Positions 11,413 through 43,490 of a stretch of 64,000 bases of DNA are shown piece by piece. Location of the stretch: NCBI GenBank assembly GCA_963848135.1, contig CAWKCK010000017.1, positions 62,001 to 126,000 on the forward strand, read 5' to 3'. A program made the position numbers and the translations under genes. This DNA is from an uncultured delta proteobacterium (GTDB lineage: Bacteria; Desulfobacterota; Desulfobacteria; Desulfobacterales; SG8-13). Position 1 is the stretch's first letter; each line of letters opens with the position of its first letter. The notes beneath the pieces are model-generated. The model made no database searches and was not told the origin of the DNA. It was given only the letters and a program-made list of their open reading frames with translations.

Positions 11413-12934
11413 ATGGTTGGATCGATACGTAATTTCTTGGGTGTAACCGCAACTTTTCTACCTCGCCTGATGCCTTGCTGCCTGACCGCATTTCTGTTTA
11501 TCGCAATGTTTCCCGGCACAATCTTGACCGTCCAAGCAAACTCACCGGATGACCAGATGGAGGAAGCTCTTTTACAACAGCCCACTTGGATTGGCGATTT
11601 CGACAAAATGGTCGAAAAAAAGCGGCTTCGTGTGCTTATCGTTCACAGTAAGACATTTTATTTTCTGGATCGAGGAAAACAACGTGGCCTTGCCTATGAA
11701 ATGGTCAAGAAATTTGAGCAATTCATAAACAAAAAACTCAAAACCAAAACGTTGAAGGTGCAGGTCGTTTTTATCCCCGTTAGACGCGACGAACTCATAC
11801 CTGGTCTAATCAACGGACGGGGGGATATCGCCGTCGCCAACCTGACCGTTACCCCTGAACGCCTCAAATCAGTTGACTTCTCAGATCCCTTATTTTCGGA
11901 CGTTAGTGAAGTCCTTGTCACCGGACCAGCAGCCCCACCGCTCAGTACCATAGACGATTTGGCGGCTAAGGAAATTTACGTCCGCCGGTCGAGCAGCTAT
12001 TACGAGAGTCTGGTCAAACTGAACACGACACTTCGAAAGTGCTGGAAAAACGCCGATTAAATTGGTTGTCGCCGACGAGATGTTCGAGGACGAAGATCTG
12101 TTGGAGATGGTCAATGCCGGACTCATCCCCATGATTGTGATGGACAGTCACAAGGCGCAACTCTGGGTGAAGGTCTTCGACCATATTCGGGTGCACCCGG
12201 ACATTGCTGTAAGAACCGGTGGGCGAATCGCATGGGCATTTCGCAAGAAGAGCCCCGAACTCGCGGCCATCATCAATGAATTTGTAGCCAGCCATAAACA
12301 GGGAACCCTGTTCGGAAACATTGTGTTCAACCGTTATCTTCGCAACACCAAGTACATCAAGAACTCCGTATCCGAAGCTGAGTTGGAAAAATTTGATGCC
12401 ATGGTGAAACTTTTCAAAAAATACGGTGACCGATACGACTTCGATTACCTGATGATCGGGGCCCAGGCATATCAGGAATCCGGACTCGATCATCAAAAAA
12501 TGAGCCCGGCCGGGGCTGTCGGGGTGATGCAGATGTTGCCGGCTACGGCTGCGGACCCGAACGTCGGCATCGCCAAAATCGAAAAACTGGAAAACAACAT
12601 CCACGCCGGAACCAAGTATATGCGGTTTATCATTGACCGGTATTTCAAAGACGAACCGATGACAGACCTTAACAAAACGCTCTTCGCCTTCGCCGCGTAC
12701 AATGCCGGACCGGCACGGGTGATCCAATTGCGGAAAAAGGCCGTTGAGATGGGGCTGGACCCGAATGTCTGGTTTCAAAATGTGGAAATCGCCGCTGCCC
12801 GGGATATCGGCCGCGAAACGGTCCAATATGTTGGAAACATTTATAAATACTATATCGCTTATAGTAAAGTCGTTGAACAGCTGGAACAGAAGGAAAAGCT
12901 ACTGCAGGATAAGGCAAGCCAAAGAAGCGAGTAG
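11413..12934 (+). CDS. mltF: MltF-like lytic transglycosylase (SBP family 3 + SLT domain); net +1 frameshift near 12030
   Basis: GDIAVANLTVTPER and VRRSSSY in ORF1; AYQESG, GAVGVMQM, AYNAGP and ETVQYV in ORF2. Removing one base gives a continuous ~506 aa protein. Confidence 0.8.
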
Positions 12935-17409: not shown

Positions 17410-17893
17410 CTCAGTGATGAGATTGAAGAAAAAATCCTGGCTCTGTATGGCCTGGGGATGAGCTATCAAGATATATCCGCCATCTTGAGGATATCTATGG
17501 CATTGAGGTCTCAAAGGGCACCCTGACGGCGATTACCGATAAAATCATCCATACAGTAAAAGAGTGGCAGGCCCGGGCATTAGAATCGATTTATCCCATT
17601 GTCTGGCTGGATGCCATTCACTACAAAATTCGTGAGGACGGCAAGGTCTTCAGCAAAGCTGTTTACACGATCCTTGGTGTCAATATTGAAGGCCGCAAAG
17701 AAGTCCTTGGGCTGTATATTTCAGAGAACGAAGGGGCCAACTTCTGGTTGCAGGTTCTGACCGATCTATCCAACCGAGGTGTTGACGATATCCTGATCGC
17801 CTGTATCGATGGTCTTAAGGGATTTCCGGAAGCCATCGAAACATCTTTCCCCAAACGGAAGTCCAACTTTGTGTTGTGCATCAAATTCGCAAA
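17410..17893 (+). mobile_element. IS256-family transposase internal fragment (truncated at both ends, frameshifted)
   Basis: Hand translation gives EEKILALYGLGMS, VKEWQAR, YPIVWLDAIHYKIR, GRKEVLGLY, EGANFWLQVLTDLSNRGV, IACIDGLKGFPEAI and QLCVVHQIR. Confidence 0.9.
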
Positions 17894-18226
17894 TTGAACA
17901 GCGCTCTCCCCTTTTTTGTTTTGTAATATTTGTATAATAAATTTATGCCATTATGACCCAAGTTGATCGTTTCATATTTTCGAAAGCGGTCAGTCTTCAG
18001 CACATTATTCCCCTAACGGACATATTATACGAACACGCTATCGAACGGGATAACGAATTAACTTTCTTTCCCCTGCCCATCGAATCTTATTGTTATTTGC
18101 CTTTTGCAGTCTTATTTTTTGATATTCATGGGTGCAGTCGGATGCACCGATAATCCTAAATATATACAAATCAATCCGAAGGAAAAAAGATGAAGCAATG
18201 GAATCGGGAAAAAAGGGAGATAAGAG

Positions 18227-24249: not shown

Positions 24250-27200
24250 TCAACCTTGAGGGGTCACATCTTCGAATGCCATCAGGATCAGGCTTTCTGT
24301 CTCGACCCCGCGCTCAATTTTACGGGCATTGAGCAACAATTTTTTCTGGCCGATCTTATCGAAAAAGTGTTCGACCGAAAAATCTTCCATGACAGTGCCT
24401 TCCGCAGCAACCTTTTCGAGCAGCTTCTTCAGGTCGGGAATATCCCACTGCCGTTTCTGCAGATCGAAAATTTTACGCCCGACAATGTTGCCGGAGCTGA
24501 CTTGAAATTTGGCGTAAAATGCCGGGTTGGTTGAGACAACCTTCATTTGGCTATCGAGAACGAGCATGGGCTCGCGCAGGGTCTCGATGATGCTCTCGGC
24601 ATAGGCGCATTGTTCACTCAATGCCCGATTCAATCCATCGATCCGATCGGAAGCCATCTTTTGTTCATGGATGTCCATAAATATGATCACCACGCCGTCG
24701 ATGACATTGTCGATGGTACGATAGGGAAGAATCCGCATACGAAACCAGCGACCCTCTTTGGTCTGGACTTCTATTTCTCGGTATATAAGGGTTTTGAGAA
24801 CTTCCCGGGCATCTGCCGGCAACTGGTCATAGTTGAGATTGGAGGCGATGTGGTGAAGGGGCCGTCCGATATCGGTATCGATCACGTTGATCACCTCGGT
24901 GGCCTGGGTTGTAAAACGCTTGATCTTTAGTTGCGTGTCCAGAAATATCGTCGGCACCTCGACACTATCCAGGAGATTGCGCATGTCGTTATTGGTAATT
25001 GTGAGTGCATCGATTTTCTCCTGCAACTCGGCATTGACCGTTACCAGTTCTTCGTTGAGAGACTGCTGCTCCTCCTTGGATGTTTCGAGTTCCTCGTTGG
25101 CACTCTGCAACTCTTCGTTTGTGGATTGCAGCTCCTCGTTGGTCGACTTGAGCTCCTCGTTGGAGGTCTCCAGCTCTTCGATCGTGATCTGCAGGTTCTC
25201 CTTGGTGTACTTCAACTCCTCTTCGAGAACCTCGATACGTTTGCTTGGTTTCTGACCGGTCGTTTGTTTCGCCGCGGTGCGTTTCTTTCCTGAAGCCGGC
25301 GGCGTCTCCTCGAACACCACCAGCAGCATACCGGTCGCAGCCTCTGTCAGATTCAAGGGCTTGACCGTCAAATCGATGGTCCGCCATCCGCCGTTGTCTT
25401 TGACTTTCATTCCTCTCTGGATCACGGTCTGCCTTAAATTTAACACCTTGCGTACCGCCAGGTGGAGTTCCGGCTTGAGGCCTTCCCGGGCCATTTCCAT
25501 CAAGTTCCAGCGGGCCTCTCCCGGTGCCGGCTCCAGAAAGGCGCCGGTGCGACCATGGACGTAAAGAATGTCGCCCTTTTCGTTAATGATCACACCGGGT
25601 GGAGCATAATTTTCCAACAGGATTTTTTCCGCCATCCGGGACAGGTTGAATTCTTTGGGTTTTACAGCGTTCTTGTCGGCGCCTGTTTCAATCTTTGAGG
25701 GAAAAGGAAATTCCACCGCTGTATGATACGCAACGGCGGTTTGCTTTCGCCGGAAGATTTTCCATTTTTTGTCCGTTACCTCGAAGAGATCGGCAAAACC
25801 ACCGATGGTCTCTGAGGTCCCCAGAAACATCGTGCCTCCAGGATTCAAGGCATAATGAAACAATGGCAGCAGCTTCTTTTGGATAACAGGTTCGAGATAT
25901 ATCAACAGATTGCGGCAACTGATCAGATCGAGCTTGGTGAAGGGCGGGTCCCGGATAATGTCCTGGGGGGCGAATACCAGAGTCTCGCGGATGTTCTTCT
26001 TGATGCGAAATGTGGTGTCCTGCTTTGAGAAGAAACCTCTCAAGCGTTCCTGACTGACATCCGCTGATATGCTGGCCGGGTATACACCGCTGCGGGCCAC
26101 CTCTATGGCATCAGTATCGATATCGGTCGCGAAGATCTGGACCCCTAAGTTTCGACCGATCTCATGCAAGCACTCCTGAACCAGGATGCCTACCGAATAG
26201 GCCTCCTCTCCGGTAGAGCAACCAGGCACCCACATCCGCAATGTGTCGTTGTCCGATTTATGCTTTGACCAAATCAATCAGACATTTTTGTTTAAGGGTC
26301 TCGAAGGCTTCTGAATCCCTGAAAAAATTGGTGACGCCGATCAGAAGTTCTTTGAAAAGAAGGGAGATCTCCTGGGGGTTCGCTTGCAACAGGCGAACAT
26401 AGTCTGCTACCCGGTCGATCTGGTGCAAGCTCATACGCCGTTCGACGCGCCGGCCGATGGTGTTGGGTTTGTAAAGGCTGAAATCATGGCCCGTGTGAGA
26501 TCGCAGCAGAATGAATATTTTTTGCATGGCGGAGGGAAGCGCATCATCCGCCGGATGGTGCGCTGGAAGAGCTTTCTGTCCAACATGCTGAACATACTTA
26601 ACGAGCTGCCCGGCCATTTTCTCCGGCGGCAGGATGTAATCCACCAGGTCAGTGGCGACGGCGCTTCTGGGCATGCCGTCATATTTGGCGGACTGGGGAT
26701 CTTGAACCATGGCCATGCCCAATTCGCCCTTGACGGCCCGAAGGCCCATCGTCCCATCGGTGCCCATGCCGGTCAAGATCACCGCGATGGCCCGATCGCC
26801 GGCATCCTGGGCCAGTGTGCGTAAAAAATAGTCGATGGGCATACGGGATCCGGGATTGTTTGTCGTTTCCAACAGCTGCAGCACGCCGTGCAGTATCGCC
26901 AGATTCTTGTTTGACGGGACGATGTAAACCGTGTCGGGTTCGACAGTCATACCGTCGGCAATCTCCCGCACCGGCATCCGGCAATATTTCTGAAGTAGCT
27001 CGGGCATGATACTGATGTGGGTGGGATCCAGATGCGGAACCAGTACAAAGGCCATGCCGTTTTTTGGGGGCACATTCTTAAAAAGTTTCTGAAGCGCCTC
27101 CAATCCACCGGCCGAGGCGCCTATCCCGACGATATGGAGGTTCTCATGTTTCTTCTGAATTAACCCGGAAGGTAATCTCTGCTTTTTGGGAACCGTGCTT

Positions 27201-27256
27201 TTAACGGCGGTCTTTTCGAATTTTGAATGCGATGGTGTCTTTTTTCCGCCAGCCAT
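24250..27256 (-). CDS. CheB methylesterase-CheR methyltransferase-coiled coil-PAS fusion (CheBR); net +1 frameshift at ~26265
   Basis: CheB motifs GASAGG, PHL and TGMGTDG; CheR motifs GVTNFFRD, GCSTGEEAYS, FATDID and DLISCRNLLIY; NEELQST heptads; PAS domains. Removing one base gives ~1001 aa. Confidence 0.9.
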
Positions 27257-27641
27257 AAGGCACTCCTTTATTTTTCAAAAACGGCTGTCATTATAAAAGC
27301 TTGAGAGGAGGCGTGAGCGACGATGTGCTGATCCTTTTATGGCATGGAACCGCGTTTATTGCAACTACCCGCAAGAGGAGTATCGACTGGCGGATTAACC
27401 GAACCAACTGTATTTATTGATCCTAACCGTTCAACAGCTGACCCAAAACCAGATGAGCAGCGGATAGTGCCAACGACGATTACCCTGCCGTAGTTTTACC
27501 CTATCGAAATGATGAAATTGCCGTAAATTGTGAAATAGACTTTACATTTTCTGTCAGCTTATTACATTTAGTATAGAGCAATACAACCGATAACTTATTT
27601 AAGACACTGTTATTAAAACGGATTTAGTTTTATGGGTTTTC

Positions 27642-27657
27642 TGGCATGCAGATTGCT
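27642..27657 (+). promoter_or_regulatory. Sigma54 (RpoN) -24/-12 promoter
   Basis: TGGCAT-GCAGA-TTGCT matches TGGCAC-N5-TTGCW with exact spacing; AT-rich upstream region. Confidence 0.65.
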
Positions 27658-27667
27658 TTATATTATA

Positions 27668-27883
27668 GACAAACAAAAGCCGAATGGCTCCTAACCACAA
27701 CATCATAGATAAGAACCACGTCGTTCCGCTAAATGCGGACGCAAAGGTTACCATTTAAAAAAGGGTTTTCGGATTCATTCGGACAGCGTTTCTCGGGCGT
27801 AAGTGCATCTCACATGAAAAACTGCGCTGCGGGAAACCACAATATGAAAAAGGCAAGTCTGAGAAGGCTTGCCTTTTTCATAT
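27668..27883 (+). ncRNA. Candidate sigma54-dependent small RNA (~210 nt)
   Basis: Lies between the sigma54 motif and a strong terminator. Both flanking genes are on the minus strand; the longest ATG ORF noticed inside is 24 codons and lacks an RBS. Confidence 0.4.
27842..27883. terminator. Bidirectional rho-independent terminator
   Basis: ATATGAAAAAGGCAAGTCT-GAGA-AGGCTTGCCTTTTTCATAT: 19-bp stem with A and T tracts. Confidence 0.8.
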
Positions 27884-27931
27884 ATTGATACTTTGTTTTT
27901 CTGGAACTTCCGTTGGATGAACTTAACGTCT

Positions 27932-28961
27932 TTAATTGTTAAATTGGTATCCCAAAAGGAGCATAAATTTTGAGTCCCATTTCGATATGGCGTCAGGTGA
28001 AGGATTGTTGTTGTAGTCGTAATTATACTGAAGTGTTGTGAAAAAGCCTTTGTATAAAGGAAAGCGCAGACCTTGACGGGTGTTAATCAACCAGTTGCTC
28101 GCGTCATCGAGACTGATGTAGCCGTTACTGGTGTGGAACAGTTGCACGAATTTATTAAAGAAATACTGATCATACTGGATAATCCACTGAGCACCCGGAA
28201 AGTCGTCGTCTTCGGCCTCAATGTAATTTTCGAATATATAGGCCAAGCCGGCCGAAGCCGATAAATTCAAGCTCGTCGGATTCGAAAAACTGGTGCCCAC
28301 CGCCGGCACCAAGGGTTGTCCGAAGATCAAGGTCGGCAAACTCGTCATGCTCGAACAGGGAGCTGGCGTATAAAAACCACTTGGGCTTGATGAAGTAATC
28401 GTACATTCCGTAGCCTTTCCAGTTCGCCACGGTCGTGGTGCTGTCAGCCCGTTGCTTGTTAAATTCGCCACCAATGGTAAACCGTTGTTTTTCGGATCGC
28501 GCTATTAACTGTGCGTCTATACGGTACTGATTTGTTTCGGTGTTGCCGCTTTCACTCGTTATGCCGACGTTGGCAAGGCTTTTTATTTTTATTCGTGGTT
28601 TCGGTTCGGTATAGATGTCTTTTACTTTTGCAATGTTGATATCCGTCGGGCGTTTCTCAAACTCGGGCCTAACATCGTCAGCGGGTGACTCTCTGTAGAA
28701 AACCGTTCCCTTGCGGGTGGACCCATCGAGCAGCGTGGTTTCCATCGGTTTGTCAGTGGCCAGACGTTTCACATTTTCGGCCTGAATGGTAATCTCGCCG
28801 GCATAATCGGTCTTGAAAACAAGTTGACCCTCCTCCAACCGTACGAACTCACCGGTGATCCTGTCACCATTATCGAGGACGACTTCATCGGCGACCACAG
28901 GTTGAGTGGCTAAAACCAATGAAATAAAGACCCAACTGAAAAACTTAGGTAGTCTTCTCAT
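27932..28961 (-). CDS. DUF481/YdiY-like outer-membrane beta-barrel; net +1 frameshift at ~28270
   Basis: Signal peptide, DEVVLDNGDRITG, SGNT, EHDEFADLDLR..LGAGGGHQF and C-terminal LGYQF. ~342 aa when joined. Confidence 0.75.
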
Positions 28962-29149
28962 TTCTAAGCCCCATGGTTTGATTTAAAGTTGATTTATGGA
29001 TTGGGGAGATAGTGAATCCAAGCGGGCAGTGAGTTCATGTCTAAGTATCAACGACCTCATTAAAATGAAAACCCCATTTAACTACCCAATTACGGGGTTG
29101 TGGTCCTTCTCGGTCAGTGTCGCGGGCCCTACACCCTTGACCTGGATTT

Positions 29150-30703
29150 TCAGTGCTTGAACTCCTCCGGCACCGCCAGTCCGCTTCCCCGGCCCTTCGT
29201 CTTTCGCCATAGCGACCATGTCAGAGCAGCGATTGCCAAAACCAGCAGAACAGCGGCAATGGGGCTTTGAAGGAAAATCAGTGGATCGCCGCGCGACATC
29301 AATAGGGCCGTGCGGGTGTTGCGTTCCAGGATCGGCCCCAATATAAATGCCAGAATGAAGGGGGGAATGCTCATGCCCATTTTGCGCATGATGTATCCCA
29401 GAAAACCCAGCGCCAGAAAAATCCGCAGGTTGAAAACATTGAATTCCTCGGCATAGACACCCACCACGCAGCAGACCACCACCCCCGGGAAGAAGAGGGA
29501 ATAATTTAAGGATTTGAATATCCGCTGAACCACAGAAATAAATGGCAGCGCCACAACAAAGGCACCGATGAAATCGGTCAGAAGAAGCAGGACAAAGAGG
29601 CCGTAAATGATTTCCGGGTGTTCCTGCATCAGCATGGGGCCGGGGATCATACCCTGAATCATAAAAGCGCCGTACATAACGGCCGCGGCCACGCTGCCGG
29701 GTATGCCCAGAGTCACGAGGGGAATCAGAGACGATGCCGCCACGGCGTTGTTGCCGGCCTCGGGTGCGGCAATGCCCCGGGGATCGCCCTGGCCAAAGCA
29801 GGCATCACCTTTGGCCGACCGCCGGGCCTCACCATAACATACGAAGGCCGAAGTCGTGGCCCCGATGCCGGGCAGAGCCCCCAGCAAGGACCCCACCAAG
29901 GAGGATCGAATAAGATCTTTTAGACAGACTTTCAGGTCGGACCAACGCTTCTTCCAGGTGTATGGGATGGCAGGCGCAACGTCGTTTCTGGCCGCCTCCA
30001 AACTGAAATTGCCAACTTTTTCGGCCTGTATGAATACCTCGGAGAGGGCCAGAAGAGCTATTATTGTCAATACAAACGGCACACCGTTATCGAGGTCTTC
30101 GAGGCCGAAAACATAGCGCCGCGAGGCACTCATGTTGTCCAATCCGACAATCGCCAGCATCAGACCCATGGTGATTGATATAAACCCCTTCCAGATGTCC
30201 ATGCGGCTGTCGCCCAGCAAGGTAATCACGGCTGTCAGCGAAAAGAGGATCAGCGCCGCAATTTCGGCCGGGCCCAGCCTCAGGGCCACCTCGGCCAGGG
30301 GGGGTGCGGTGAAAATCAGCAACAGGTTGCTGATCGTTCCTCCGATCAATGATGCCCACAAGGCGATTTCCAGGGCGCGTTTCTGGTGCCCCTGCTTAAA
30401 CATGGGATAACTGTCCAGAGCCGTTGCGGCGGCCTCGGGCGTGCCGGGAATGTTGAACAGGGTGGCGGTGATCGACCCGGCATAGGCGCCACCTTTGTAG
30501 ACGCCCATCAACAGGGCGATGGCAAACAACGGTTCCAGTGTAAACGTGTACGGTAAAATCAGCACCATGGCCGTAACGGCCATGATGCCGGGAATCGCCC
30601 CGGCGATGATGCCGATCAGGTAGCCGATAACGATCGCAAACAAGTTCCAGGCCGATACCGCATAGCGGGCCCCTTCCCACAGATGACCGAATATTTCAAG
30701 CAT
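29150..30703 (-). CDS. tctA: Tripartite tricarboxylate transporter large permease
   Basis: GAIPG, GSITATLFNIPGTPEAAATALDSYPM, GALPGIG, APEAGNNA, LGIPGS and PFILAFILGP. Confidence 0.93.
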   Translation of the reverse strand: MLEIFGHLWEGARYAVSAWNLFAIVIGYLIGIIAGAIPGIMAVTAMVLILPYTFTLEPLFAIALLMGVYKGGAYAGSITATLFNIPGTPEAAATALDSYPMFKQGHQKRALEIALWASLIGGTISNLLLIFTAPPLAEVALRLGPAEIAALILFSLTAVITLLGDSRMDIWKGFISITMGLMLAIVGLDNMSASRRYVFGLEDLDNGVPFVLTIIALLALSEVFIQAEKVGNFSLEAARNDVAPAIPYTWKKRWSDLKVCLKDLIRSSLVGSLLGALPGIGATTSAFVCYGEARRSAKGDACFGQGDPRGIAAPEAGNNAVAASSLIPLVTLGIPGSVAAAVMYGAFMIQGMIPGPMLMQEHPEIIYGLFVLLLLTDFIGAFVVALPFISVVQRIFKSLNYSLFFPGVVVCCVVGVYAEEFNVFNLRIFLALGFLGYIMRKMGMSIPPFILAFILGPILERNTRTALLMSRGDPLIFLQSPIAAVLLVLAIAALTWSLWRKTKGRGSGLAVPEEFKH

Positions 30704-30747
30704 CGACAAACTCCAAATTTAGGTTTCCGGTACAGGTTCTGACGCGA

Positions 30748-31248
30748 TCAGGCCCCCTTTTTAAGCGTCGATCGGATCATTTCCTCCAGCGGGCCTTCCG
30801 GCAGGATAGAGTTCAGGCCGTAAAAAATAAAGTAAATCACCAGCGGCATGATCACGCTCAGGGCCAGGGTCTTGGTCCAGCTTTTTGATCCGAATACCCG
30901 CGAGGAAATGGCCAAGAACAGAAAGGTGGAGACCAGAAACCCCAGCCGTTCCAAGCTCAACACCCAGGCCCCGGTAACCAGAAGCATGATGACCGGGCGA
31001 AGCGCTGCACTCATCTTTACTGGCCGGGTGTTTTCCTGTCGATCGGTTTTGCGTGTTTCTTTTCGAAGTGCACGGATACCTTCGACCAGATAGGCCAGCG
31101 AGAAACACAGCAGCATCGTATTAATGAGATGGGGATAGACAGGCGACGTGCCTTCGGCAACCACCTGGGTGGGAATTAAGTAAATGTAATTGACGATGCA
31201 AAAACCGATGAGAAATCCGGCAACAGAGATTTCCGAACGGACGTTCAT
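30748..31248 (-). CDS. tctB: Tripartite tricarboxylate transporter small subunit
   Basis: 4-5 TM helices, LERLGFLVST and LPEGP; lies between tctC and tctA. Confidence 0.85.
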   Translation of the reverse strand: MNVRSEISVAGFLIGFCIVNYIYLIPTQVVAEGTSPVYPHLINTMLLCFSLAYLVEGIRALRKETRKTDRQENTRPVKMSAALRPVIMLLVTGAWVLSLERLGFLVSTFLFLAISSRVFGSKSWTKTLALSVIMPLVIYFIFYGLNSILPEGPLEEMIRSTLKKGA

Positions 31249-31305
31249 AACGGACCCCTCAACCACGCCGAGCAGAGAGAACCTGCTTAACTGGCACTGT
31301 TTGGG

Positions 31306-31350
31306 GAGCAATCACGCCGGACCCGTTGGGAACGGGCCGGCGTGATGCTC
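31306..31350. other. Intercistronic stem-loop between tctC and tctB
   Basis: GAGCAATCACGCCGGACCCGTT-GGG-AACGGGCCGGCGTGATGCTC with no U tract; probably an mRNA stability element. Confidence 0.5.
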
Positions 31351-31392
31351 CGGTGATAAAACGCATTTCTTCGATAGGGACTGCTCGTGATC

Positions 31393-32356
31393 TTAGAACT
31401 TCTTAAGGCCGACTTCTTTGAGTATTCCGCCCCAGATCCCCCAGTATTCGTCACACAAGGCGCGATACTTCTGGCCGTCCAAAAAGTCGATGCTTATGTA
31501 AAGTTCTTCCTTGGCTTTCTGTTGAACATCGGGCTGAGACACCGCAAATTTAATGGCCTCCTCGATTTTTTTGCGGATCGCCTCCGGCGTACCCTTGGGG
31601 AACACCGCCCCCAGGCAGGAGAACTGCGAAAAATCATAACCCATCTCCTTCAGGGTGGGCGTGTCAGGGGTCAGAGGAATTCGTTTGGCACTCATGATGG
31701 CGAGAGGTTTGAGTTTGCCGCCCTTGTAAGCCGACACCGAAGCTGTGGTCGAGGTGTTGCAGAATTCCACGTGCCCGCCCAATACCGCTGCAACGGATTT
31801 GGGATTGCCTTTGAAAGGAATCGGCTGCATTTCCAACTTTTCATTATTGGCCAGCCACGCCACGCCCAGGTGATTGGTCGTGCCCAGGCCCGGTGTGCCG
31901 TAGGTGACGTCCCGGGTTTTGACGGGCATAGGCGATCAGGTCTTTGAGGGTGTTGTGGGGGGAGTCGTTCTTGACGTAGAGGATGTAGTCATAATGCATG
32001 GGAGAGGCGATATAGACCAACTCCTTGGGATCATAAGTCAGCTTGCGCATCTGGGGAATCGTCACCAGGGTGGGCAGGTTGGCCCAGGAAAAAGTGTAAC
32101 CGTCGGGTTTGGCTTTGGCCAGCGCGGAGATGGACACGGCGCCGCCGGAACCGGGTTTGTTGACAAGCACCAGGGACCCGCCCAAATACTTCTCCATATA
32201 GGGGGCAATGGTGCGCACAAACACGTCGGTGGTTCCACCGGCGGCCAAGGGGATGTAAGCGGTGATAGGTTTCTGGGGATAGTCCGCGCCGGCAGCCGGC
32301 AGGGCAATCAGGACCATCAAGATCAGGCTGACCATCACTCCCAAAGTTTTTCTCAT
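31393..32356 (-). CDS. tctC: Tripartite tricarboxylate transporter substrate-binding protein (TctC/Bug); net +1 frameshift at ~31912
   Basis: Signal peptide, YPQKPI, AAGGTTD, VNKPGSGG, KPDGYT, TYGTPGLGTTNHL, IPFKG and PDTPTLKE. ~320 aa when joined. Confidence 0.9.
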
Positions 32357-32409
32357 GTCATTTCCTCCTTTTGTTTAACGTTAAGTTTGATGCTTTACGT
32401 GGTCGGCCA

Positions 32410-34003
32410 CTACCGAAGCAGATAAGGGATCTCCACCCAGAGGGCATCATGGGGACATTCCACTTCGCACGGCAGGCAGAACCAGCAGGTGCGGTACTTG
32501 CCGAAAGGCGCCCCGCAACCGTAGCAGCGACCGGCTTCCTGTCTTGCGGCTTCCATCGGCAGTACCGTTTCCACTTCCTTGAAATCACCCTTCCCCGTGA
32601 ATCGGCGCCAACGGGGCTGTATGCGTTTGTCTGCCGATCCCCGGGAGGTGTCGATCTCGAATTCGGTTTCATAAGGTCCCGGATAGGCCCGGCCGTAGGC
32701 CAGATGCTGTCCACTGAACAGCCGGTGGACACTTTCGGCCGCCCGGCGTCCGGATGCCATGGCCTCGACGATGGTCGACGGGCCGCCCACCGCATCACCG
32801 GCCCAGAAGACCGATTCCTCATCGGTCTGCAGTGTCAGTAGGGTCACACGTTGCGGCCTGTCGGGCCAGGGCCGGTTCCCGATCCTGGCCGATGGCGATG
32901 ATGACCATATCCGCATCGACCGACTGGAGCGCACACTCGTCAAATCGCGGCGCAAACCGACCCAGGGAATCGAACACGGCCAGGCAACGCTGCAGCTCCA
33001 CGCCCGAGACCTTCTCGTCCGTCGACAGTATCCGCAACGGCCCCCATGACCCTTCCAGTTCCACGCCTTCGGATTCGGCCAGATCCAATGCTTCGCGGCT
33101 GGCCGGCAATATATCGCGGCTTTCGAGACTGACCACCCGAACCTTTTCGGCACCCAGGCGAAGAGCGGTCTGGGCGGAATCGAGGGCCACGTCCCCGCCG
33201 CCGATCACCACGACATGTTTGCCTATTTTCGGCGGGTTCCCGTCACGAACCTGCCGAAGAAAATTCAGGGCATGGACGACGCCTTGCGCGTCTTCGCCCT
33301 GGATGCCCAGCTGTTTGGGCCGGGGGCAGCCGGTGGCCAAAATCACGGCATCGCAGGTTGCGGACAATGCGTCAAGATCGAGTTCGCGTCCCAAATGTTT
33401 TCCTCCCACAAATTGAACGCCCAGCGTCGCAAGCTTTGCCCATTCGGCCGCTAATACCGATTCCGGGATTCGAAAGGCTGGAATCGCCCAGCGCAACATA
33501 CCACCGGGTTCAGTTTCGGCATCGTAAACCGTCACCCGGTGTCCCCTCACAAGCAGGTCAAAAGCAGCCACCATACCTGCCGGTCCGGATCCGACCACCA
33601 CACAGTGTTTTCCAGTCGGCGCTGCCTTGTCCGGAACCCTCGGTGAACTGCCGGCCACCAGGTCGCTGACATAGCGTTTCAGAGCCCGGATCGCCACAGC
33701 TTCGCCCTCGGTGGTCTTTCGATGGCAAGTGGTTTCGCACGGGGCCGAGCAGAGACGCCCCAGGATGGCCGGAAAGGGCAGCTCCCGTTCCACCATTTCC
33801 AGGGCCTCCTCTTCGCGGCCGCGCAGAATCAGCTGAACATATCCCTGGCAGTTAACTTCCAATGGGCAGGCCTGGCGGCAGGGTGCCAGTTTCATCCGCA
33901 GGTTGTCCAATATACAGGTGTCCACGCAGATTCCGCAAGTCGTGCATTTATCGGGATCCACGACGATGTTATCCGACAGGGCTTCGAGGAGATTTATGCG
34001 CAT
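32410..34003 (-). CDS. Fe-S/FAD NAD(P)H oxidoreductase (GltD/NfnB-like core flanked by ferredoxin half-motifs); net +1 frameshift at ~32840
   Basis: CTTCGICVDTC, APCRQACP, RLCSAPCETTC, VVGSGPAG, VIGGGDVALD, AGDAVGGP, EAGRCYGC and CWFCLPCEVECP. ~530 aa when joined. Confidence 0.85.
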
Positions 34004-35676
34004 GCGGCACCCCCTTTGTCCTTCATTTTGACGATCTCTTTGTGCGAGATGTCGATGTCGTCAACCGCCGCGCCCTTTTTGAGAATGATGTGTTTGCGCC
34101 AGTTGGCGTCGTCTTTTTCGGGAAAATCGCTGCGAAAGTGCCACGGCAACCAGCGACTCTCGGTCCGCTCGAGGGAGGCGGTTGCACTCAAGACAGCGCA
34201 CTGGATGATATTTTCAACTTCATAGGTCTTGAACAGATCATGGTGGTCGCGCACGAATACCATTTCATCGAGTTCCTGACGGAAACGGGCCATCCACCAC
34301 AACACCCGATTGAGTTTGTAGGCGTTTTTGGGTGGCGTCAAGTAGTCGCTGATGATGCGCCGCACCTTGTATTCGAACTCCTCTACGGCCACCGGATTCT
34401 GGTGTTGGCCCAGGCGTTTTTGCCGCTTGGCCAAAAAGGCGTCGATCTGGGCCGGCACCGCCTCGGCCATATCAACGGATGCCGCGTATTCACTGGCACT
34501 CTCGGCACAAATTTCACCGTAGACAAAAGCGCCGGAGAGATGGCCCCGGGCGCATAAAGAGGTGTCACCGGCCGCATAGAGGCCGGGCACACTGCTCTCG
34601 CCCTTTTCGTTTATACGCACACCGGTCATTCCGTGGCCGCCGCAAAGATAGACCTCGGTGGGCCAGAGTTCAATTTCACCGGTGCGAAAATCGTTATCCC
34701 GACCGGCGTGAAAGCGCTCGCAAGCCGGCCGCTCGGTTGTGAAGAGAATGTCCTCGATCTCCTTGATCTTTTCCTCGGGCAGGTGATCCATGCGGATGCG
34801 CAGCGGCCCGGAATGGTCGAAAAAGTCCTCCATGCACATGCTTTTTATGGAGGGATGCGATTTGTCGCGCCGCTCGCCAAACGCGTTGAGCAAATGGGCG
34901 CCGCGTGTCAGGGTAATGTAAAGCAGAGGCGCGTTGATGTCCTTTGTGATGTAGTAATGCAACGTGTACTCGAAGCCGCTGAGTTCGGCGCCGGCCCGGT
35001 ACGCCAGGCAATAACCGTCGCCGGTGTTACCGGGAAAGTCATAGACCCCGTAAAGGTTGCCGTTGGACGGCAGGCCAAAGCGGGCCGTCCCTCCGGCGCT
35101 GAGAATCACGCTTTTGGCGCGTATCACCAAGAACTCACCGCTGCGTACGTTGATGGCGATGACGCCCGCCACCCTTCCGTCTTCGATGAGGATCTCGGCG
35201 GCCATGGTGCGGTTGAGCACTTTGGCGCCGCCGTTGATCAATCGCTGGTAGAGGATGGCTTTGAGTTCCGGCTCTTTCATGGTGACGCAGAAACGCCCCT
35301 TGGGGTGTACCTGCAGAATCTCATAACTCCCCTGGTCATCGGTGGGAAAGCACACCCCCCAGTCGATCAGCTTTTTCATCAAAGGCCAGCTGCGTTCGGC
35401 CATGCGATAGTTGACCGGCTCATCCATTATACCTTCACAGGCGAGGGCGTTGGATTCCACATAGAGCTCGGGAGTGGCGACCCCGGGAACCGCAACGATA
35501 TTCAACGCATCCATGCCCCGGGCGATGCACCCGGAATATTTGGCGTCCCCTTTTTCAAGCACGATGACCTCCTGGTCCGGACGCACCTCCTTGGCGCGGA
35601 TCCCGGCCATGGCACCGGCACTTCCGCCACCCACCACGAGGACATCACATTGCATTACAGGATAATCGACAGTCAT
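33994..35676 (-). CDS. AprA-like flavoprotein (succinate dehydrogenase/fumarate reductase/APS reductase superfamily)
   Basis: DVLVVGGGSAG, SGCIARGMDALN, NTGDG, PGLYAAGD and ERTESRW..HFRSDFPEKDDANW. Confidence 0.85.
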   Translation of the reverse strand: MTVDYPVMQCDVLVVGGGSAGAMAGIRAKEVRPDQEVIVLEKGDAKYSGCIARGMDALNIVAVPGVATPELYVESNALACEGIMDEPVNYRMAERSWPLMKKLIDWGVCFPTDDQGSYEILQVHPKGRFCVTMKEPELKAILYQRLINGGAKVLNRTMAAEILIEDGRVAGVIAINVRSGEFLVIRAKSVILSAGGTARFGLPSNGNLYGVYDFPGNTGDGYCLAYRAGAELSGFEYTLHYYITKDINAPLLYITLTRGAHLLNAFGERRDKSHPSIKSMCMEDFFDHSGPLRIRMDHLPEEKIKEIEDILFTTERPACERFHAGRDNDFRTGEIELWPTEVYLCGGHGMTGVRINEKGESSVPGLYAAGDTSLCARGHLSGAFVYGEICAESASEYAASVDMAEAVPAQIDAFLAKRQKRLGQHQNPVAVEEFEYKVRRIISDYLTPPKNAYKLNRVLWWMARFRQELDEMVFVRDHHDLFKTYEVENIIQCAVLSATASLERTESRWLPWHFRSDFPEKDDANWRKHIILKKGAAVDDIDISHKEIVKMKDKGGAACA

Positions 35677-35754
35677 AGTGGCTCCGTAAGTTTAGTTTGT
35701 TGGTTCGTTACTGTTTAATCTCGAGACGTGTCATTACGTTGGTTGAGATACCCA

Positions 35755-36555
35755 TCACGGACCGGCGGTGGCTATTAGCCCTGGGAATTCCCTATAGATC
35801 AACCTATCGGCTGTGTTGCAATAACTCACTTGGTATTCGTAGATCGTGTTCCGCGTCGTGATCGCCATCATCGTAATCTTTTGCACCGGTGCACCGGATT
35901 CAATCTGCAGCATGTTCGCCACCTCGGCAGTCGCCGCCGCGGCGCCAAAGAGTTCCCTCGTGGCAAGGGTCGGCATGCTGTATTCGTTTTCCACCAAACG
36001 GTAGATCGGGGTTTCTTCAAGGTCCTGGGGCGAAAACTTGCCGAAATCTGCAAATAAGTCCCGGGGCAGGTAGGAGGTCACATATACCAGCGGTTGGGCT
36101 CCGAGTAAAAACTGACGGTGGATTTCGAACACCTCGTCGTCCAATACTCGGCCCAATTTGACAGCAATGTCGGGTTGGGAATTAAGGCGCGGTGGATGCA
36201 GGCATTTGATCGTCAGTGCTGGTACTTGATCGTCAAAACCGCCGACAAAACGAAAATACCGAAGAGCATCGCTATGTTCGATTGACTTTCTGACGAAGGT
36301 CCCGCGGCCCTGTTCCCGCGACAGATACCCCTGGGTCACCAGATTACGAAGGGCATTTCGAACAGTGCCCACACTGGCATCGAATATGCGGGCGAGTTCA
36401 CGCTCGGGCGGTATGCGGTCCCCCGGAGTCCAGTCTCCCTTCCGGATTCGATTCAGGATGCTGTCCTGAATCCGACCGTACTTGGGCTTTTGGGCGTCTG
36501 AAACGAACAGGTCAATTGGTGCGTCTGCTTTTTTAAAGGCCACTGACCATACCAT
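35755..36555 (-). CDS. GntR-family (HutC/UTRA) transcriptional regulator; start uncertain
   Basis: PGDRIPPERELA..SVGTVRNAL..QGRGTFV wHTH and a C-terminal UTRA-like domain. Confidence 0.9.
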   Translation of the reverse strand: MVWSVAFKKADAPIDLFVSDAQKPKYGRIQDSILNRIRKGDWTPGDRIPPERELARIFDASVGTVRNALRNLVTQGYLSREQGRGTFVRKSIEHSDALRYFRFVGGFDDQVPALTIKCLHPPRLNSQPDIAVKLGRVLDDEVFEIHRQFLLGAQPLVYVTSYLPRDLFADFGKFSPQDLEETPIYRLVENEYSMPTLATRELFGAAAATAEVANMLQIESGAPVQKITMMAITTRNTIYEYQVSYCNTADRLIYREFPGLIATAGP

Positions 36556-36845
36556 TAAAGGTATTGTTGGTGGTTGTCAAAAAAACGATCCGTTATTCCA
36601 CCGTCTGCTTCACCAACCACTGATACCACCTTTCCACTTTTCAGAATTTATTTTAAAAATCGGTATAAATGTCGCCAGAAATGGCGGGAAAGAAAATTGA
36701 ACTAAACATATATAGCAATTGGGTGTCAAGATCTCAGCGGTACATTTTACAATTTTTCAGCAATCAGTCTCCAGTGTCTTCGGAAGCGGATGAAAACCCC
36801 TTATAGTCGTTGTCAAAAAAACGTTCCGTTAATGGACTTATGGGC

Positions 36846-37913
36846 CTACTTCGGTGCTTCCGTGTGGGCGGGATAGCTGCCGAGGACTTTCAGCGAAATG
36901 GTCAATTTTTCCATTTTGCTGAGAACATCGGCTATCTTCTCATCTTTACCCGAACCTTCGAAGTCGAGGAAAAAACAGTAATTAAGGGGATCCGATCGCA
37001 GGGGCATCGAGGCGATCCGGGTCAGGTTAATCTTGTTTTCGGCAAACAGGCGCAGCACCGCGTATAGCCGTCCGGCTTCATGCGGGGTGGCGAAGATGAT
37101 CGATGTCTTTTCACCTTTGCCTTCAAATGGCTCCCGGGCCAATAGCAGAAACCGGGTGGTGTTGGCCGGACCGTCTTCGATGCCTTCCTTGATGATCTCG
37201 AGGTCATAGAGTTCGGCGCAAAGCCTGCTCGAAATCGCCGCTGCGGCCCGCGGATTTTCCCGGGCCAACATTTTCGCGGCGCCGGCTGTGTCATAGAAAG
37301 GCCGTGCCTCCAAATTGTTGCGCATGAGAAAGTTCCGGCACTGTGCCAAGGCCTGGGGGTGGGAATAGACCAATCGGATTTCGCGATAATCGGTGGCTTC
37401 GGTGGCAAGAAGACAGTGCCTGACGAGGATCCTGGCCTCACCGATCACCTTCAGGTTTGTGGTCGTCAACAGGTCGTTGACCTGGGTGACAGCCCCTTCC
37501 AGGGAATTTTCGACAGGTACCACCCCAAAATCCAGGTATCCCTCTTCGACACCGCGAAAAACATCGACAAATTCAAGGCAAGGAATGAAGGCACCGCCGG
37601 GCATCAGCAGGCGGGCGGCCACCTCACCGTAGGCCCCATGTTCCCCTTGGAAAGCGACCAGCTTACGGTCCTCTTCCTGCAGGCGTTTGCTCTCCTCAAT
37701 AATCGTTTTGAGCAGTTGCCGGGTAAACGAGCGTTCAACCAGGTCCAGGTTGAGACGTTCGGCACGGGTCAGGACATCTTCCTCCCGATTGGGATCGGTG
37801 ACGTTCTGCTTGAACTTTTTAGATCTCAGGGCCATTCCCATTCGTTCCTGCAGCAGAACCAAGAGTTCCCGATCTATTTTATCGATTTTTTTCCTGATAT
37901 CTTCGAGCTTCAT
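36846..37913 (-). CDS. pheA: Chorismate mutase / prephenate dehydratase
   Basis: LEDIRKKIDKID, FQGEHGAY, PVENSLEG, SHPQALAQC, NTTRF and INLTRIASMP (ACT domain). Confidence 0.93.
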   Translation of the reverse strand: MKLEDIRKKIDKIDRELLVLLQERMGMALRSKKFKQNVTDPNREEDVLTRAERLNLDLVERSFTRQLLKTIIEESKRLQEEDRKLVAFQGEHGAYGEVAARLLMPGGAFIPCLEFVDVFRGVEEGYLDFGVVPVENSLEGAVTQVNDLLTTTNLKVIGEARILVRHCLLATEATDYREIRLVYSHPQALAQCRNFLMRNNLEARPFYDTAGAAKMLARENPRAAAAISSRLCAELYDLEIIKEGIEDGPANTTRFLLLAREPFEGKGEKTSIIFATPHEAGRLYAVLRLFAENKINLTRIASMPLRSDPLNYCFFLDFEGSGKDEKIADVLSKMEKLTISLKVLGSYPAHTEAPK

Positions 37914-37946
37914 TCTGTCACCTCGCCTGTTAAACACCCGGTTATA

Positions 37947-38762
37947 TTATTCGGGCAGTTTTTCCATAAATGTCTTCAGCGGTCTCACCCGTTTCATCAA
38001 TTCCGCGAACATCTGCGGAGTGAGCGCCTGGTCCGCATCGCTCAGCGCCTCCTGGGGATTGTTGTGTACCTCGACGATCATTCCATCAGCGCCGGCCGCC
38101 ACGGCAGCCAGACTCATCGGCCCGATCAGGCTGAGACGACCTGTGCCGTGCGTGGGATCGACAATAATCGGCAAATGGGTCAGCTCCTTGATAGAGGGAA
38201 CGGCACTCAAGTCCAGGGTGTTACGGGTGTATTTTTCGAACGTACGGATCCCCCGCTCACAGAGGATGACGTTGGGGTTGCCCTCGCTGAGAATGTACTC
38301 GGCGCAATTGAGCCACTCCTCCAATGTCGAGTACATGCCGCGTTTCAGGAGCACCGGTCGATCAGATCGGCCTACCTCTTTGAGAAGCGCGTAATTCTGC
38401 ATGTTGCGGGTGCCGATCTGGAGAATATCGGCAAACTCGGAAACCCAGGAAACGTCTCTCGGATCGATCACCTCGGTAACAATCGGCAGACCGGTTTCTT
38501 GCCTGGCCTTCTCGAGGATTTTCAAACCGCCAAGACCCAACCCCTGAAACGAATAGGGGGACGTGCGTGGTTTGAAAGCCCCACCGCGCAACATATCCGC
38601 CCCGGCGGCCTTTACGGCCCGGGCGGTTTCGATGGTCTGCGCCTCGCTTTCAACACCGCAAGGCCCGGCGATAACCACAAACTGGTTACCGATTTCAATG
38701 TTACCCACCTGGACAACGGTCTTCTGTCCTTTTTCTCCCGATGCAAGTTTTAGATTTTTCAT
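37947..38762 (-). CDS. aroF: DAHP synthase, class I-beta (no N-terminal regulatory domain)
   Basis: [46 protein letters not shown] and DPTHGTG. Confidence 0.93.
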
Positions 38763-38975
38763 GGCTGATCCAATTGTTGACCTTGAGATATGAATGCCCG
38801 CCGACCCTTGTACCTCGCACAAACCCCGCAAAAGGGGCAATGGACCATTCACGCGTTTGTTTCATAAGGAAAAATTTGTTTATATCGCAGCTTTTTTCAA
38901 AAAGATCAAATTTAAATTCCTTATAAATGAAGCGGTTCCCCCTCCAAGTAATATCTGAGACACTCACTTTCGGTA

Positions 38976-41967: not shown

Positions 41968-43271
41968 TCAGTTTTCTTCAACACTTTCTTTCATATGATG
42001 ACTGTACTTTTCAATCTCCGATCGGATTCGCCGGTATCCGTGGATAAAAAATCCACCAGCAACAAGATAATAAAAAAGGTATTTCCAGTAGGCCACTGTG
42101 GTCAGACCGGGAAAAGCATCCGGTACCGGCCAGCAGAGCATTATGACGAGCAGCGCCAGAACGAAACTAGGACCGGTATCATCAACGCGGCCAGTCGCAG
42201 CTTCTGTTTCGGTCTGGGGTCTAAGGGATCGACCCAAAGCGGCATTGCCAGGGCAATTTGATCGTCGGTGATGACTGATTTTGTTGGGGGTCCTTGGCCT
42301 GAAACAACCTGTGAAAGGTTTTTCGCAACCGTATGGATTCACCGAGGTTTATTACCGCAACGAGGAAAAGGGCGGCAAAGACAATGGGGGCAATCAGGAT
42401 GGCATCGCTCACATCAAGTCCGAATTTACCAAATCGCGTCTTGATGTTTTTAAAGGTACTGTTAAGTTCCATTTCGCGTTTTTTGATCTGCTCCTGTCTT
42501 TGGTTCAGTTTTTCTACGGTTTCTCGCTTCTCAGTCGCGGCCTGTGCCATTTTTTTCCCGATCTCTTCGAACCTGTTATCGTTCCAAAATCTGTGCACTC
42601 CGTCGACCATTCTTTTATACAGGGGAGAGGTTTCATCGAAATTTTTCCAGAACTCCGGATCGGCAGCCACCCTTCTCTAAACATCAAAACCAGCCTCTCC
42701 GTCCCGTCATTTTAAGATCTGTCTTCCACTGATCGAAAGCAGCGATATTGAGGGCTTCAAGAGGGGCGGCAATTTCTTTTTCCAACACCTCTCTGTACTG
42801 ATCGTACTTCAGATTCATATATTGTTTGAGACGGCACGCCATCCAGGCGTCTTTATTATCGGGCAAACCGCAAGTGGACGGATCTGCCTCGAGGCCGTCT
42901 GGCAGCTTTGCCACCGGGCCCCCGCCAGCTTCTTTCTCGAGAGCATCGATGTAACCCTCCAACGGTTTGGGCGTGTTCTCGACTGCCGTAAACAGCTCCT
43001 CGAGACCATTTTTCACTTGGGTGTATGTCGCTATACGCTGCTCCTGTTGGCTCACTTCCTGTGTAAGCCTTACCACCTCAGCATTGGTTCTGGTCTTGTC
43101 GATCTGAAGATAAAGAAAAGGGAAAAGAATCGATAATAGAAAAATGATCGACAGGGATATGTGGCCAATATGAGTCGCATTGAAAACCTTGATGTTGGCC
43201 TTATACCGGTCTTGAATCCGCTTGAGATGATCGTCAATTGTTTTCTGTAGATCTTTGTCGATGTCTGCCAT
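41968..43271 (-). pseudogene. Membrane/coiled-coil hypothetical gene broken by several frameshifts (~42710, ~42672, ~42280, ~42165)
   Basis: Three track ORFs plus intervening frames read as one protein (TM, coiled coil, several TMs); GAGG RBS before 43271. Confidence 0.55.
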
Positions 43272-43490
43272 AGACCACCTCTATTTAGTGTTGACCTGTA
43301 ATGGGGCTTTTTTTACGCTGGCCGGGATGCTATGAACGCCCAGAACATATCCGAATCCTGCTTCCTGGAAATCTTCAATAAGGTTACACACTGCGATGGT
43401 CGCTTATGTCAGCACGCATTCCACGTCCGGAACCGAAACCAGCGGCAGCCAGCTGACACTGATAGAATGATTGCTCATTCCGCTAACATT

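Follow-up and report, generated by a model that had tools for sequence, protein, structure and literature searches.

A candidate uptake-and-redox module with an AprA-like flavoprotein beside a tripartite tricarboxylate transporter in an uncultured Desulfobacterales bacterium

What does a relative of AprA, the flavoprotein subunit of adenosine 5'-phosphosulfate (APS) reductase, do in an operon with a regulator and a solute importer? This question is raised by a six-gene block in a 64-kb stretch of DNA from an uncultured delta proteobacterium of the Desulfobacterales (GCA_963848135.1, contig CAWKCK010000017.1, positions 62,001 to 126,000). The whole stretch is called the window here, and all coordinates refer to it. 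The block lies at 29150-36555 on the minus strand, where gntR, the flavoprotein gene, an Fe-S/FAD gene, tctC, tctB and tctA follow one another in the same orientation. Pfam assigned GntR+UTRA, FAD_binding_2+Succ_DH_flav_C, Fer4_20+Pyr_redox_2, TctC, TctB and TctA to their open reading frames (ORFs), respectively. The reading that we favor, and consider reasonably probable, is that of a GntR-controlled, horizontally acquired uptake-and-redox module with an NAD(P)H-linked AprA-like flavoenzyme. As judged from sequence, the flavoprotein appears to represent an uncharacterized sister family of the APS and 3'-phosphoadenosine 5'-phosphosulfate (PAPS) reductases, and the subunit that would supply its electrons is of a new kind. 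Below, C-numbers denote contigs of the window's own genome (G000), L-numbers the loci of relatives, G006 and G007 the two nearest genomes of the same genus, and X1-X4 public sediment metagenome runs.

A preliminary description of this DNA had given the order and shared orientation of the six genes correctly but had missed that two of them are broken in frame. It had also pointed out a 10-bp overlap, which was located at 33994-34003, where the start of the Fe-S/FAD gene meets the stop of the flavoprotein gene. The arrangement is more than chance, because the same six-gene order was found in 8 of 14 genome-contig loci (L019-L024, L026 and L027) and in 1 of 20 regions from genomes of the phylum (L066). 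This conservation bears out the earlier idea of a self-contained unit of regulator, importer and two-subunit redox enzyme. Among the other six genome-contig loci, L031 is rearranged, L028 ends inside the flavoprotein gene and four have only the flavoprotein-Fe-S pair. A homologue of the Fe-S/FAD gene lies directly downstream of the flavoprotein gene in 12 of the 13 genome-contig loci that extend past it and in 19 of the 20 phylum-genome regions; 8 of these 20 have at least one component of a tripartite tricarboxylate transporter (TTT). A GntR/UTRA gene is found directly upstream of the flavoprotein gene in L019-L024, L026, L027, L031 and L066. The invariant unit is the two-gene enzyme, and its neighbors vary.

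Family and active site of the flavoprotein

The flavoprotein gene (33994-35676, minus strand) is intact and encodes 560 amino acids. The top-scoring of 53 matching NCBIfam models was NF006131 (PRK08275; 539 bits over positions 8-542 of 577), which carries the name 'fumarate reductase/succinate dehydrogenase flavoprotein subunit'; NF010374 and TfrA gave 434 and 145 bits. The NF006131 cut-off was exceeded in none of the 14 control genomes. The protein failed the models of the neighboring families, scoring 101.4 bits for AprA (TIGR02061, cut-off 641.75), 286.9 for AprA-like PAPS/APS reductase (NF005331, cut-off 557), 126.6 for Sdh/Frd (TIGR01812, cut-off 567.3) and 100.4 for nadB (cut-off 452.75). 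Its closest PDB protein by sequence was 8a8o_A (E 5.6e-66, full length). An AlphaFold2 (AF2) model of the flavoprotein, with a predicted local distance difference test (pLDDT) value of 89.2, gave a template modeling (TM) score of 0.90 to 8a8o_A, 0.86 to AprA (1jnr_A), 0.76-0.83 to Sdh/Frd chains (ranks 3-13) and 0.62-0.70 to L-aspartate oxidase.

A tree was built by FastTree with Shimodaira-Hasegawa-like support from 112 rows, comprising full-length representatives of 500-640 amino acids, 5 close homologues, 10 locus paralogues and 4 paralogues from the window's own genome. The flavoprotein falls in a 16-row clade (support 100) nested in a 27-row clade (100). The sister group of the latter (99) has 12 rows and includes the genome's own canonical AprA, encoded elsewhere (C3:552510-554414), and PAPS-reductase-like proteins such as P0160, which is 8a8o-like at 716 bits. 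The Sdh/Frd/NadB-like proteins fall outside both groups. These results suggest that the flavoprotein belongs to the PRK08275-type family, apparently sister to AprA and PAPS reductase and apart from Sdh/Frd/NadB. The preliminary description had called it AprA-like and had proposed a phylogeny as a check; models, PDB matches, tree and fold agree that it is no canonical AprA, Frd/Sdh or NadB, and the protein did not group within canonical AprA or FrdA. The family is large, with 3177 proteins at E<=0.001 among 8000 candidates scored and 227 clusters at 50% identity for E<=1e-30. In the accessible portions of the literature on 'AprA-like' flavoproteins, only the assimilatory AprAB-like type was found and nothing on the PRK08275-type family. 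A search for APS reductase-like proteins together with sulfonate found nothing.

The nearest solved structure in both sequence and fold is the alpha subunit of PAPS reductase from Methanothermococcus thermolithotrophicus (8a8o; PMC10322725). Like the flavoprotein, it binds FAD non-covalently, keeps the equivalents of Asn74 and His398 of AprA, has a size of 556-571 amino acids and lacks the AprA insertions. The flavoprotein differs in its separate clade, in the loss of the Arg265 equivalent, in its score below the NF005331 cut-off and in its partner, which is an NAD(P)H-binding GltD-like protein of ~530 amino acids instead of a small AprB-like ferredoxin. With AprAB the flavoprotein shares the superfamily, the domain order and the SG..A.G....N loop at the flavin. 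In contrast to AprAB, the block has no AprB tail, has Ile in the place of Arg-A265 and has no sat or qmo among the scanned ORFs. In line with the preliminary description, neither family was present among 165 ORFs of at least 90 amino acids from the rest of the window (116 + 49 of 236 such ORFs, with operon ORFs and shadow ORFs left out). According to the available part of one account, assimilatory 'AprAB-like' complexes adjoin sat, cysC and sulfite reductase genes (PMC8477390), whereas the neighbors in this block are importers and regulators. The likeness to Sdh/Frd and L-aspartate oxidase lies in the fold and in the combination of FAD_binding_2 and Succ_DH_flav_C.

Residues 48-59 of the flavoprotein read SGCIARGMDALN, while AprA of A. 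fulgidus and the genome's own AprA have SGAVAQGLSAIN, a difference that had been recognized before. In the available part of the structural account of AprA, Asn-A74 and His-A398 hold the sulfo group and Arg-A265 contacts the sulfate and phosphate of APS (PMC2211403). The APSR catalytic residues are retained in MtPAPSR, as far as the corresponding source extends (PMC10322725). The flavoprotein has N59 at the position of Asn-A74 and H348 at that of His-A398, and both are invariant in 38 family members. At the position of Arg-A265 it has Ile243, and the family has I, L, M, V, E or T; the PAPS-reductase-like P0157 and P0160 keep the Arg. The counterpart of Trp-A234 is Tyr212 with one aligner and Asp213 with another. 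A His to which FAD could be bound covalently is absent. Tyr241 takes the place of the His in the HPT motif of Sdh/Frd, the loop that carries their proton-donor Arg is missing and the His of HY.MGG is Val. Since Arg265 and the Sdh/Frd catalytic residues are gone, the flavoprotein is unlikely to use APS, PAPS, fumarate/succinate or aspartate. R376, in a CARG loop, is specific to the 16-row clade and could bind an anionic group. Together with N59, H348, R53 and Y241, it would surround the putative substrate pocket.

The partner subunit and the proposed electron route

The Fe-S/FAD gene is split in the window. Its first frame (32840-34003, minus strand) matches Fer4_20, Pyr_redox_2, Fer4 and positions 46-390 of 566 of NF009410, and its +1-frame continuation (32410-32838, minus strand) matches positions 406-529. 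From N- to C-terminus, the first frame provides a CxxCxxCxxxC motif, the Fer4_20 domain and most of the FAD/NAD(P) domains, and the continuation provides the end of the FAD domain, a linker and a C-terminal CxxC...CxxCxxCxxxCP. With 57.4 bits for Fer4_20 and 85 bits for Pyr_redox_2, the partner is of the GltD/NfnB type. Its closest PDB modules are also of this type (9bov_A at E 1.6e-83, NfnA 9n5u_A and 8oh5_C), and further matches were 4ylf_B, 6s6s_G, GltD and NfnI (5jca_L). The earlier assignment as an NAD(P)H-type Fe-S flavoprotein is therefore upheld by Pfam, NCBIfam and the PDB, and docking on the flavoprotein is predicted. The partner resembles NfnB/GltD/PreT-type subunits in combining Fer4_20 with Pyr_redox_2 and in a route from NAD(P)H over [4Fe-4S] clusters to a catalytic partner. 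It differs from them in that the catalytic partner is an AprA/Sdh-superfamily flavoprotein and in the added cysteine motifs at both of its ends.

A complex was predicted from the flavoprotein, with a custom alignment, and the N-terminal 130 and C-terminal 142 amino acids of the partner as separate chains. The prediction scored 0.80, and the best of 3 controls scored 0.01. Solved complexes reach this mark in 116 of 157 cases and mismatched pairs in 2 of 215, which is a rough guide for a run with a custom alignment and three chains. Contacts agreed between runs to at least 86%, and the pLDDT of the partner was at least 89. On the flavoprotein, the predicted interface comprises residues 43-53 and 205-216, in loops beside the flavin. 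On the partner, it comprises the N-terminal Cys motif (28-33) and the C-terminal YRTCWFCLP stretch with the tail. The model suggests that the half-motifs at the two ends of the partner come together as a ferredoxin-like 2x[4Fe-4S] domain in the place of AprB. The Trp of the partner's CWFC at the predicted interface would then recall Trp-B48 of AprB, as described in the available part of the AprAB account (PMC2211403).

In the reading that we favor, TctCBA would import an organic anion, and the GntR/UTRA regulator would sense this anion or its product. Electrons would pass from NAD(P)H to the FAD of the partner, then through two GltD-type [4Fe-4S] clusters and the 2x[4Fe-4S] ferredoxin domain to the catalytic FAD. 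The ferredoxin domain, built from both ends of the partner, would sit on the flavoprotein as AprB does on AprA. In the cytoplasm, the anion would be turned over at the non-covalent FAD of the flavoprotein, reduced by NAD(P)H. The enzyme would thus be comparable to PreT/PreA and GltD/GltB, which are NAD(P)H-fed Fe-S flavoenzymes.

The importer has all three components of a TTT in the canonical order tctC-tctB-tctA, all on the minus strand. The tctC gene is broken into an N-terminal part with signal peptide and first lobe (31910-32356; Pfam TctC 2-111 of 274, 77.2 bits) and a +1-frame continuation (31393-31908; 106-274 of 274, 100.3 bits). The small membrane subunit, tctB (30748-31311; 60.3 bits), has a TTG as its listed ORF start. 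Its true start is probably an ATG near 31248, because tblastn alignments to orthologues begin only at query residues 17-22. The large membrane subunit, tctA (29150-30709; 519 amino acids), is intact and matches Pfam TctA over its full length at 431.3 bits. Identity to orthologues is 68-77% for tctC and 79-88% for tctA. The regulator gene, gntR (35755-36555, minus strand), encodes a HutC-type protein of 266 amino acids with a winged helix-turn-helix at residues 26-88 and a UTRA domain at residues 123-248, each scoring 72.3 bits. No clear operator palindrome was found upstream of the flavoprotein gene.

Several observations weigh against the favored reading. The flavoprotein scored slightly under the curated NF006131 cut-off (539 versus 587 bits), and the orthologue of the Fe-S subunit fell under that of NF009410 (390 versus 516 bits). 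The family tree comes from FastTree alone. The complex score may echo the solved AprAB and PAPS-reductase alpha-beta structures instead of being independent evidence of binding; since those structures are solved, the docking result is to be taken as likeness and not as independent proof. A sigma-70-type promoter scan gave 3 sites where 4.6 were expected, so co-transcription is predicted only. The scan was uninformative for terminators also, with 17 terminator-like sites found and 0 between genes. A literature search turned up no family member with a tested function, and the direction of electron flow and the substrate class are for this reason inferred. Finally, the module may be inactive in the source strain, since the Fe-S/FAD gene and tctC are frame-broken in the assembly.

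Origin of the block and its frame breaks

No orthologue of the module was found in 15 genomes of the same genus, in which the best match was 29% identical. The two closest of these genomes (pheA 96% and 94% identical) are those labeled G006 and G007. A block of ~9 kb (27888-36843), comprising a DUF481 gene and the operon, is not present at the syntenic site of either one. By blastn, window segments 27497-27887 and 36844-38915 are only 97 bp apart in G007, and segments 27518-27887 and 36853-38796 are only 692 bp apart in G006. The block is an insertion in the source lineage or was lost in both relatives. Horizontal acquisition is favored over loss because the guanine-cytosine content of the operon is 0.568 compared to 0.505 for the genome, because the best homologues (80-88% identical) carry the names Desulfarculaceae, Desulfoferula (with an 85%-identical protein in the cultured Desulfoferula mesophila) and Desulfosarcinaceae, and because only 29 of 401 sampled genomes of the phylum had a match at E<=1e-100. 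The closest homologues in Desulfarculaceae-type genomes keep the same gene order.

The borders of the island showed no tRNA and no Rfam family. A hairpin at 27842-27883, with 19-nt arms that are 95% complementary and a 4-nt loop, stands at the left border, and in G007 a segment of ~390 bp around it (27497-27893) is present in two copies. The operon is flanked by an imperfect direct repeat of 16 nt, with copies at 29065 and 36790, which could be due to chance. The intergenic region between gntR and pheA contains a 26-nt direct repeat (36570-36595 and 36806-36831; 92% identical, 236 nt apart), which could be a pair of regulator sites or an insertion scar.

The two frame breaks were compared to the orthologues, which are single ORFs of about 530 amino acids for the Fe-S/FAD gene and about 322-328 amino acids for tctC. 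The Fe-S/FAD gene switches to the +1 frame around 32840/32838, with one extra base at about 32839, and tctC does so between 31910 and 31908, where the extra base is 31909. Removing one base at each site restores an exact fit to the orthologues (...TCDP|LTLQ... and ...NPG|VTYG...). Programmed frameshifting was rejected, as the orthologues read through both sites in one frame. Contigs 93-99% alike to the operon were found in four sediment metagenome runs from three studies, at low depths (2.5-6.6). At 31909, the X2, X3 and X4 contigs are one base shorter than the window, and the X1 contig is net one base shorter (a 2-base gap and a 1-base insertion). At 32838/32840, the X1 and X3 contigs have one base fewer, and X2 and X4 have no cover. 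The contigs that span the break sites (X1 record 5, X2 record 12 and X3 records 19 and 20) differ from the window by ~4-7% and therefore indicate that close relatives are intact, not what the state of the source strain is.

Assembly error and real mutation are about equally probable as causes of the breaks. If both insertions are real, the strain's copy would be a dead remnant of a recently acquired, decaying island, informative on the family yet without a role in the source organism. We give this explanation nearly an even chance. Both breaks are present in the assembled sequence, and other accessory genes nearby are broken as well, namely a CheB-CheR fusion, the DUF481 gene, an MltF-like gene, an insertion sequence (IS)-like gene in three pieces and a transposase fragment. 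A genome-wide scan for split genes, defined as neighboring ORFs that differ in frame and match successive parts of the same paralogue, gave 65 strict (82 loose) candidates from 379 testable pairs, spread over all large contigs. At the overall rate of 65 in 6.03 Mb, the window should have 0.7 candidates, and it has 4. All nine long essential genes tested (rpoB, rpoC, dnaE, secA, ileS, valS, uvrA, carB and gyrA; about 29 kb) are intact, which would fit decay of accessory genes. However, with a genome-wide density of about 1 break per 46-93 kb, zero breaks in 29 kb is unremarkable, and this check cannot separate sequencing error from mutation. Each broken gene of the module shows one lesion only; apart from this, it is 68-88% identical to the orthologues and free of stop codons, which argues against decay. 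In all three breaks for which relatives were compared, one base is inserted outside of repeats, and the excess of the +1 over the -1 class among strict candidates (40 to 25) fits the consensus errors of insertion-prone long reads. The source reads were not among the public sequencing runs found, the best of which carries 0.28 of the words. Gene calls around the block in this genome need caution because of such single-base frame breaks.

The broken genes near the block are as follows in the window. An extra base near 26260, present in neither G006 nor G007, divides one fusion gene into a CheB-CheR_N ORF and a CheR-PAS ORF (24250-27256, minus strand). In G006 the gene is a single ORF of 1010 amino acids, and the copy in G007 has its own frame change elsewhere. 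The DUF481 gene, of the outer-membrane type (27935-28982, minus strand), consists of two overlapping ORFs (profile positions 2-104 and 92-210) and lies within the ~9-kb block. An SBP_bac_3 ORF and an SLT ORF (11392-12931, plus strand) match positions 143-307 and 306-584 of a 621-amino-acid paralogue on C18 and appear to be the parts of an MltF-like gene with a frame break at ~12040. A Mutator-family transposase fragment (17427-17894, plus strand) covers profile positions 122-248 of 379. The IS-like gene (41971-43280, minus strand) is in three frame-shifted pieces, and an intact copy of 436 amino acids is found on C16. By these matches, the region appears rich in mobile-element remnants. In the assembly as a whole, ileS occurs twice at full length, on C15 (9195-11687; 960.1 bits) and C18 (5228-7720; 958.5 bits). 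C15 is a 46-kb contig, the C18 copy is at the start of a large contig, and the split-gene scan links C15 with C18 and C4, which suggests redundant contigs.

Direction and substrate of the reaction

Relatives of the module are found beside many kinds of importer, including TTT, tripartite ATP-independent periplasmic (TRAP) and TAXI-TRAP transporters, sugar-type ATP-binding cassette (ABC) transporters with LacI, Opp-type and NMT1/SsuA-like ABC transporters, MFS and SBF. Other neighbors are assorted dehydrogenases (2-hydroxyacid dehydrogenases included), alanine dehydrogenase, aminotransferases, tagaturonate reductase, an MttB/corrinoid pair and a ComA-family protein. Some genomes, including G068, G106 and G393, have two or three paralogous modules that are 47-54% identical. 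In L026 (1-7000), a second module with its own TctCBA lies directly upstream of the orthologous operon, and both flavoprotein copies are paired with an Fe-S gene. Because the two-gene module recurs beside so many importers and in paralogues within genomes, the family has probably diversified in its substrates. The TctC orthologue is about equally far (E 1e-39 to 1e-29) from terephthalate-binding, BugD, Bug27 and unlabeled solved proteins, and since these differently labeled proteins are equally distant, no ligand can be transferred. As the preliminary description had anticipated, the substrate cannot be named from the sequence, beyond the likely exclusion of the four substrate types above. The nearest sister family of the APS/PAPS reductases is a large one for which no tested function was found. 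In anaerobes, its fixed two-gene module stands beside many kinds of importer, and some genomes have three copies of it. Knowing its substrates would fill a gap in the use of organic acids, possibly sulfonates, by sulfate reducers and their relatives and would show how the AprA active site has been re-used.

Net reduction of the imported compound is somewhat preferred over the reverse direction. GltD/NfnB-type modules characteristically take electrons from NAD(P)H and deliver them to the partner. C=C/C-C couples are unable to reduce NAD(P)+, which makes oxidation of a C-C single bond with NAD(P)+ as acceptor thermodynamically unfavorable, and the operon has no downstream catabolic enzyme. These same points count against a catabolic dehydrogenase, functionally similar to the tricarballylate dehydrogenase TcuAB, that would convert an imported hydroxy-, amino- or sugar acid into a central metabolite and transfer the electrons to NAD(P)+. 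The layout does resemble the tcuRABC operon, which combines a regulator, a flavoprotein, an Fe-S protein and a transporter, and NadB, of the same superfamily, oxidizes an amino acid. The 2-hydroxyacid dehydrogenases, tagaturonate reductase, alanine dehydrogenase and aminotransferases beside relatives are also typical of catabolic clusters. However, the flavoprotein scored 39.9 bits for the TcuA model (NF006130, cut-off 369), over its N-terminal half only, and we consider this oxidative alternative unlikely, although it deserves to be kept in mind.

Another possible explanation, and a rather improbable one, is that an organosulfonate such as a sulfo-carboxylate is imported and that the reduced FAD attacks its sulfur in the manner of AprA. 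An N5-sulfite adduct would form and yield sulfite that can be respired, and NAD(P)H would supply the electrons. The preliminary description had suggested sulfite release of this kind, and a few faint hints of it are found among the neighbors of relatives. The family is sister to AprA and PAPS reductase, its nearest solved structure is a PAPS reductase, and the flavoprotein retains N59 and H348 at the sulfo-holding positions. The organism reduces sulfate and has a canonical AprA besides. In L031 (4702-5487), from a Desulfonema metagenome-assembled genome, a ComA-family gene lies between the Fe-S gene and tctB (Pfam E 1.4e-52), and the 47%-identical paralogue of L084 adjoins an NMT1/SsuA-family binding protein. 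Alanine dehydrogenase occurs near four distinct loci (L030, which is L072 on the same contig, L031, L073 and L074), and aminotransferases occur near L025 and L070. This ComA (phosphosulfolactate synthase) gene was the only direct neighbor for sulfonate chemistry seen.

Other observations speak against the suggestion. The residue of AprA that contacts the sulfate and phosphate of APS, Arg-A265, has been lost here and across the family, while the PAPS-reductase-like proteins keep it. The ComA-family and SsuA-family proteins missed their curated cut-offs (152.7 versus 280 and 81.3 versus 163.5 bits). As many relatives stand in neighborhoods suggestive of sugar acids or of different substrates, such as sugar-type ABC transporters with LacI (L067, 81% identical, and L071), a tagaturonate reductase above its cut-off (L074), MFS_2 (L069), MttB with a corrinoid protein (L079) and an Opp-type ABC transporter (L083). 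For a thiamine pyrophosphate enzyme of L068, an assignment as Xsc was discarded, since acetolactate synthase models scored 365 bits and Xsc models 250-260. The operon has no sulfite exporter or sulfite reductase gene. Among 15 papers listed of 22 found by a full-text search, none had the phrase 'reductive desulfonation', and the anaerobic routes in their titles and abstracts use glycyl-radical enzymes or lyases. The accessible portions of PMC12814064 had nothing on this family either. In a broader form, the pair of a PRK08275-type and an NfnB-like protein might be a hitherto unrecognized NAD(P)H-driven class that applies the N5-adduct chemistry of AprA to organic sulfo compounds, for example to a sulfo-oxoacid whose carbon skeleton leaves as an enolate. 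This also seems a long shot. If it were true, imported sulfonates would serve sulfate reducers as a source of sulfite that requires no oxygen, glycyl radical or lyase.

Energy-conserving bifurcation, with electrons from NAD(P)H split by the NfnB-like subunit between a high-potential substrate at the AprA-like FAD and ferredoxin, is very unlikely: the closest solved relatives of the partner (9bov_A, 9n5u_A NfnA, 8oh5_C and 5jca_L) are of the NfnB/GltD type, several of them being complexes that we take to be bifurcating or confurcating, and the partner has additional Fe-S motifs at both ends, but the predicted AprB-like docking domain accounts for these extra clusters, the operon encodes neither a ferredoxin nor an Etf protein nor another module through which electrons could leave, and GltD and PreT relatives are not known to bifurcate.

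One distant relative stands in a different setting. L085 (G383:C86:1-14500) encodes a 40%-identical flavoprotein without an Fe-S partner, near a DHH-CBS protein, an NIR_SIR sulfite-reductase-like protein and NiFe hydrogenase subunits. This context recalls the PAPS-reduction genes of methanogens, but in the tree the protein falls within the 27-row clade.

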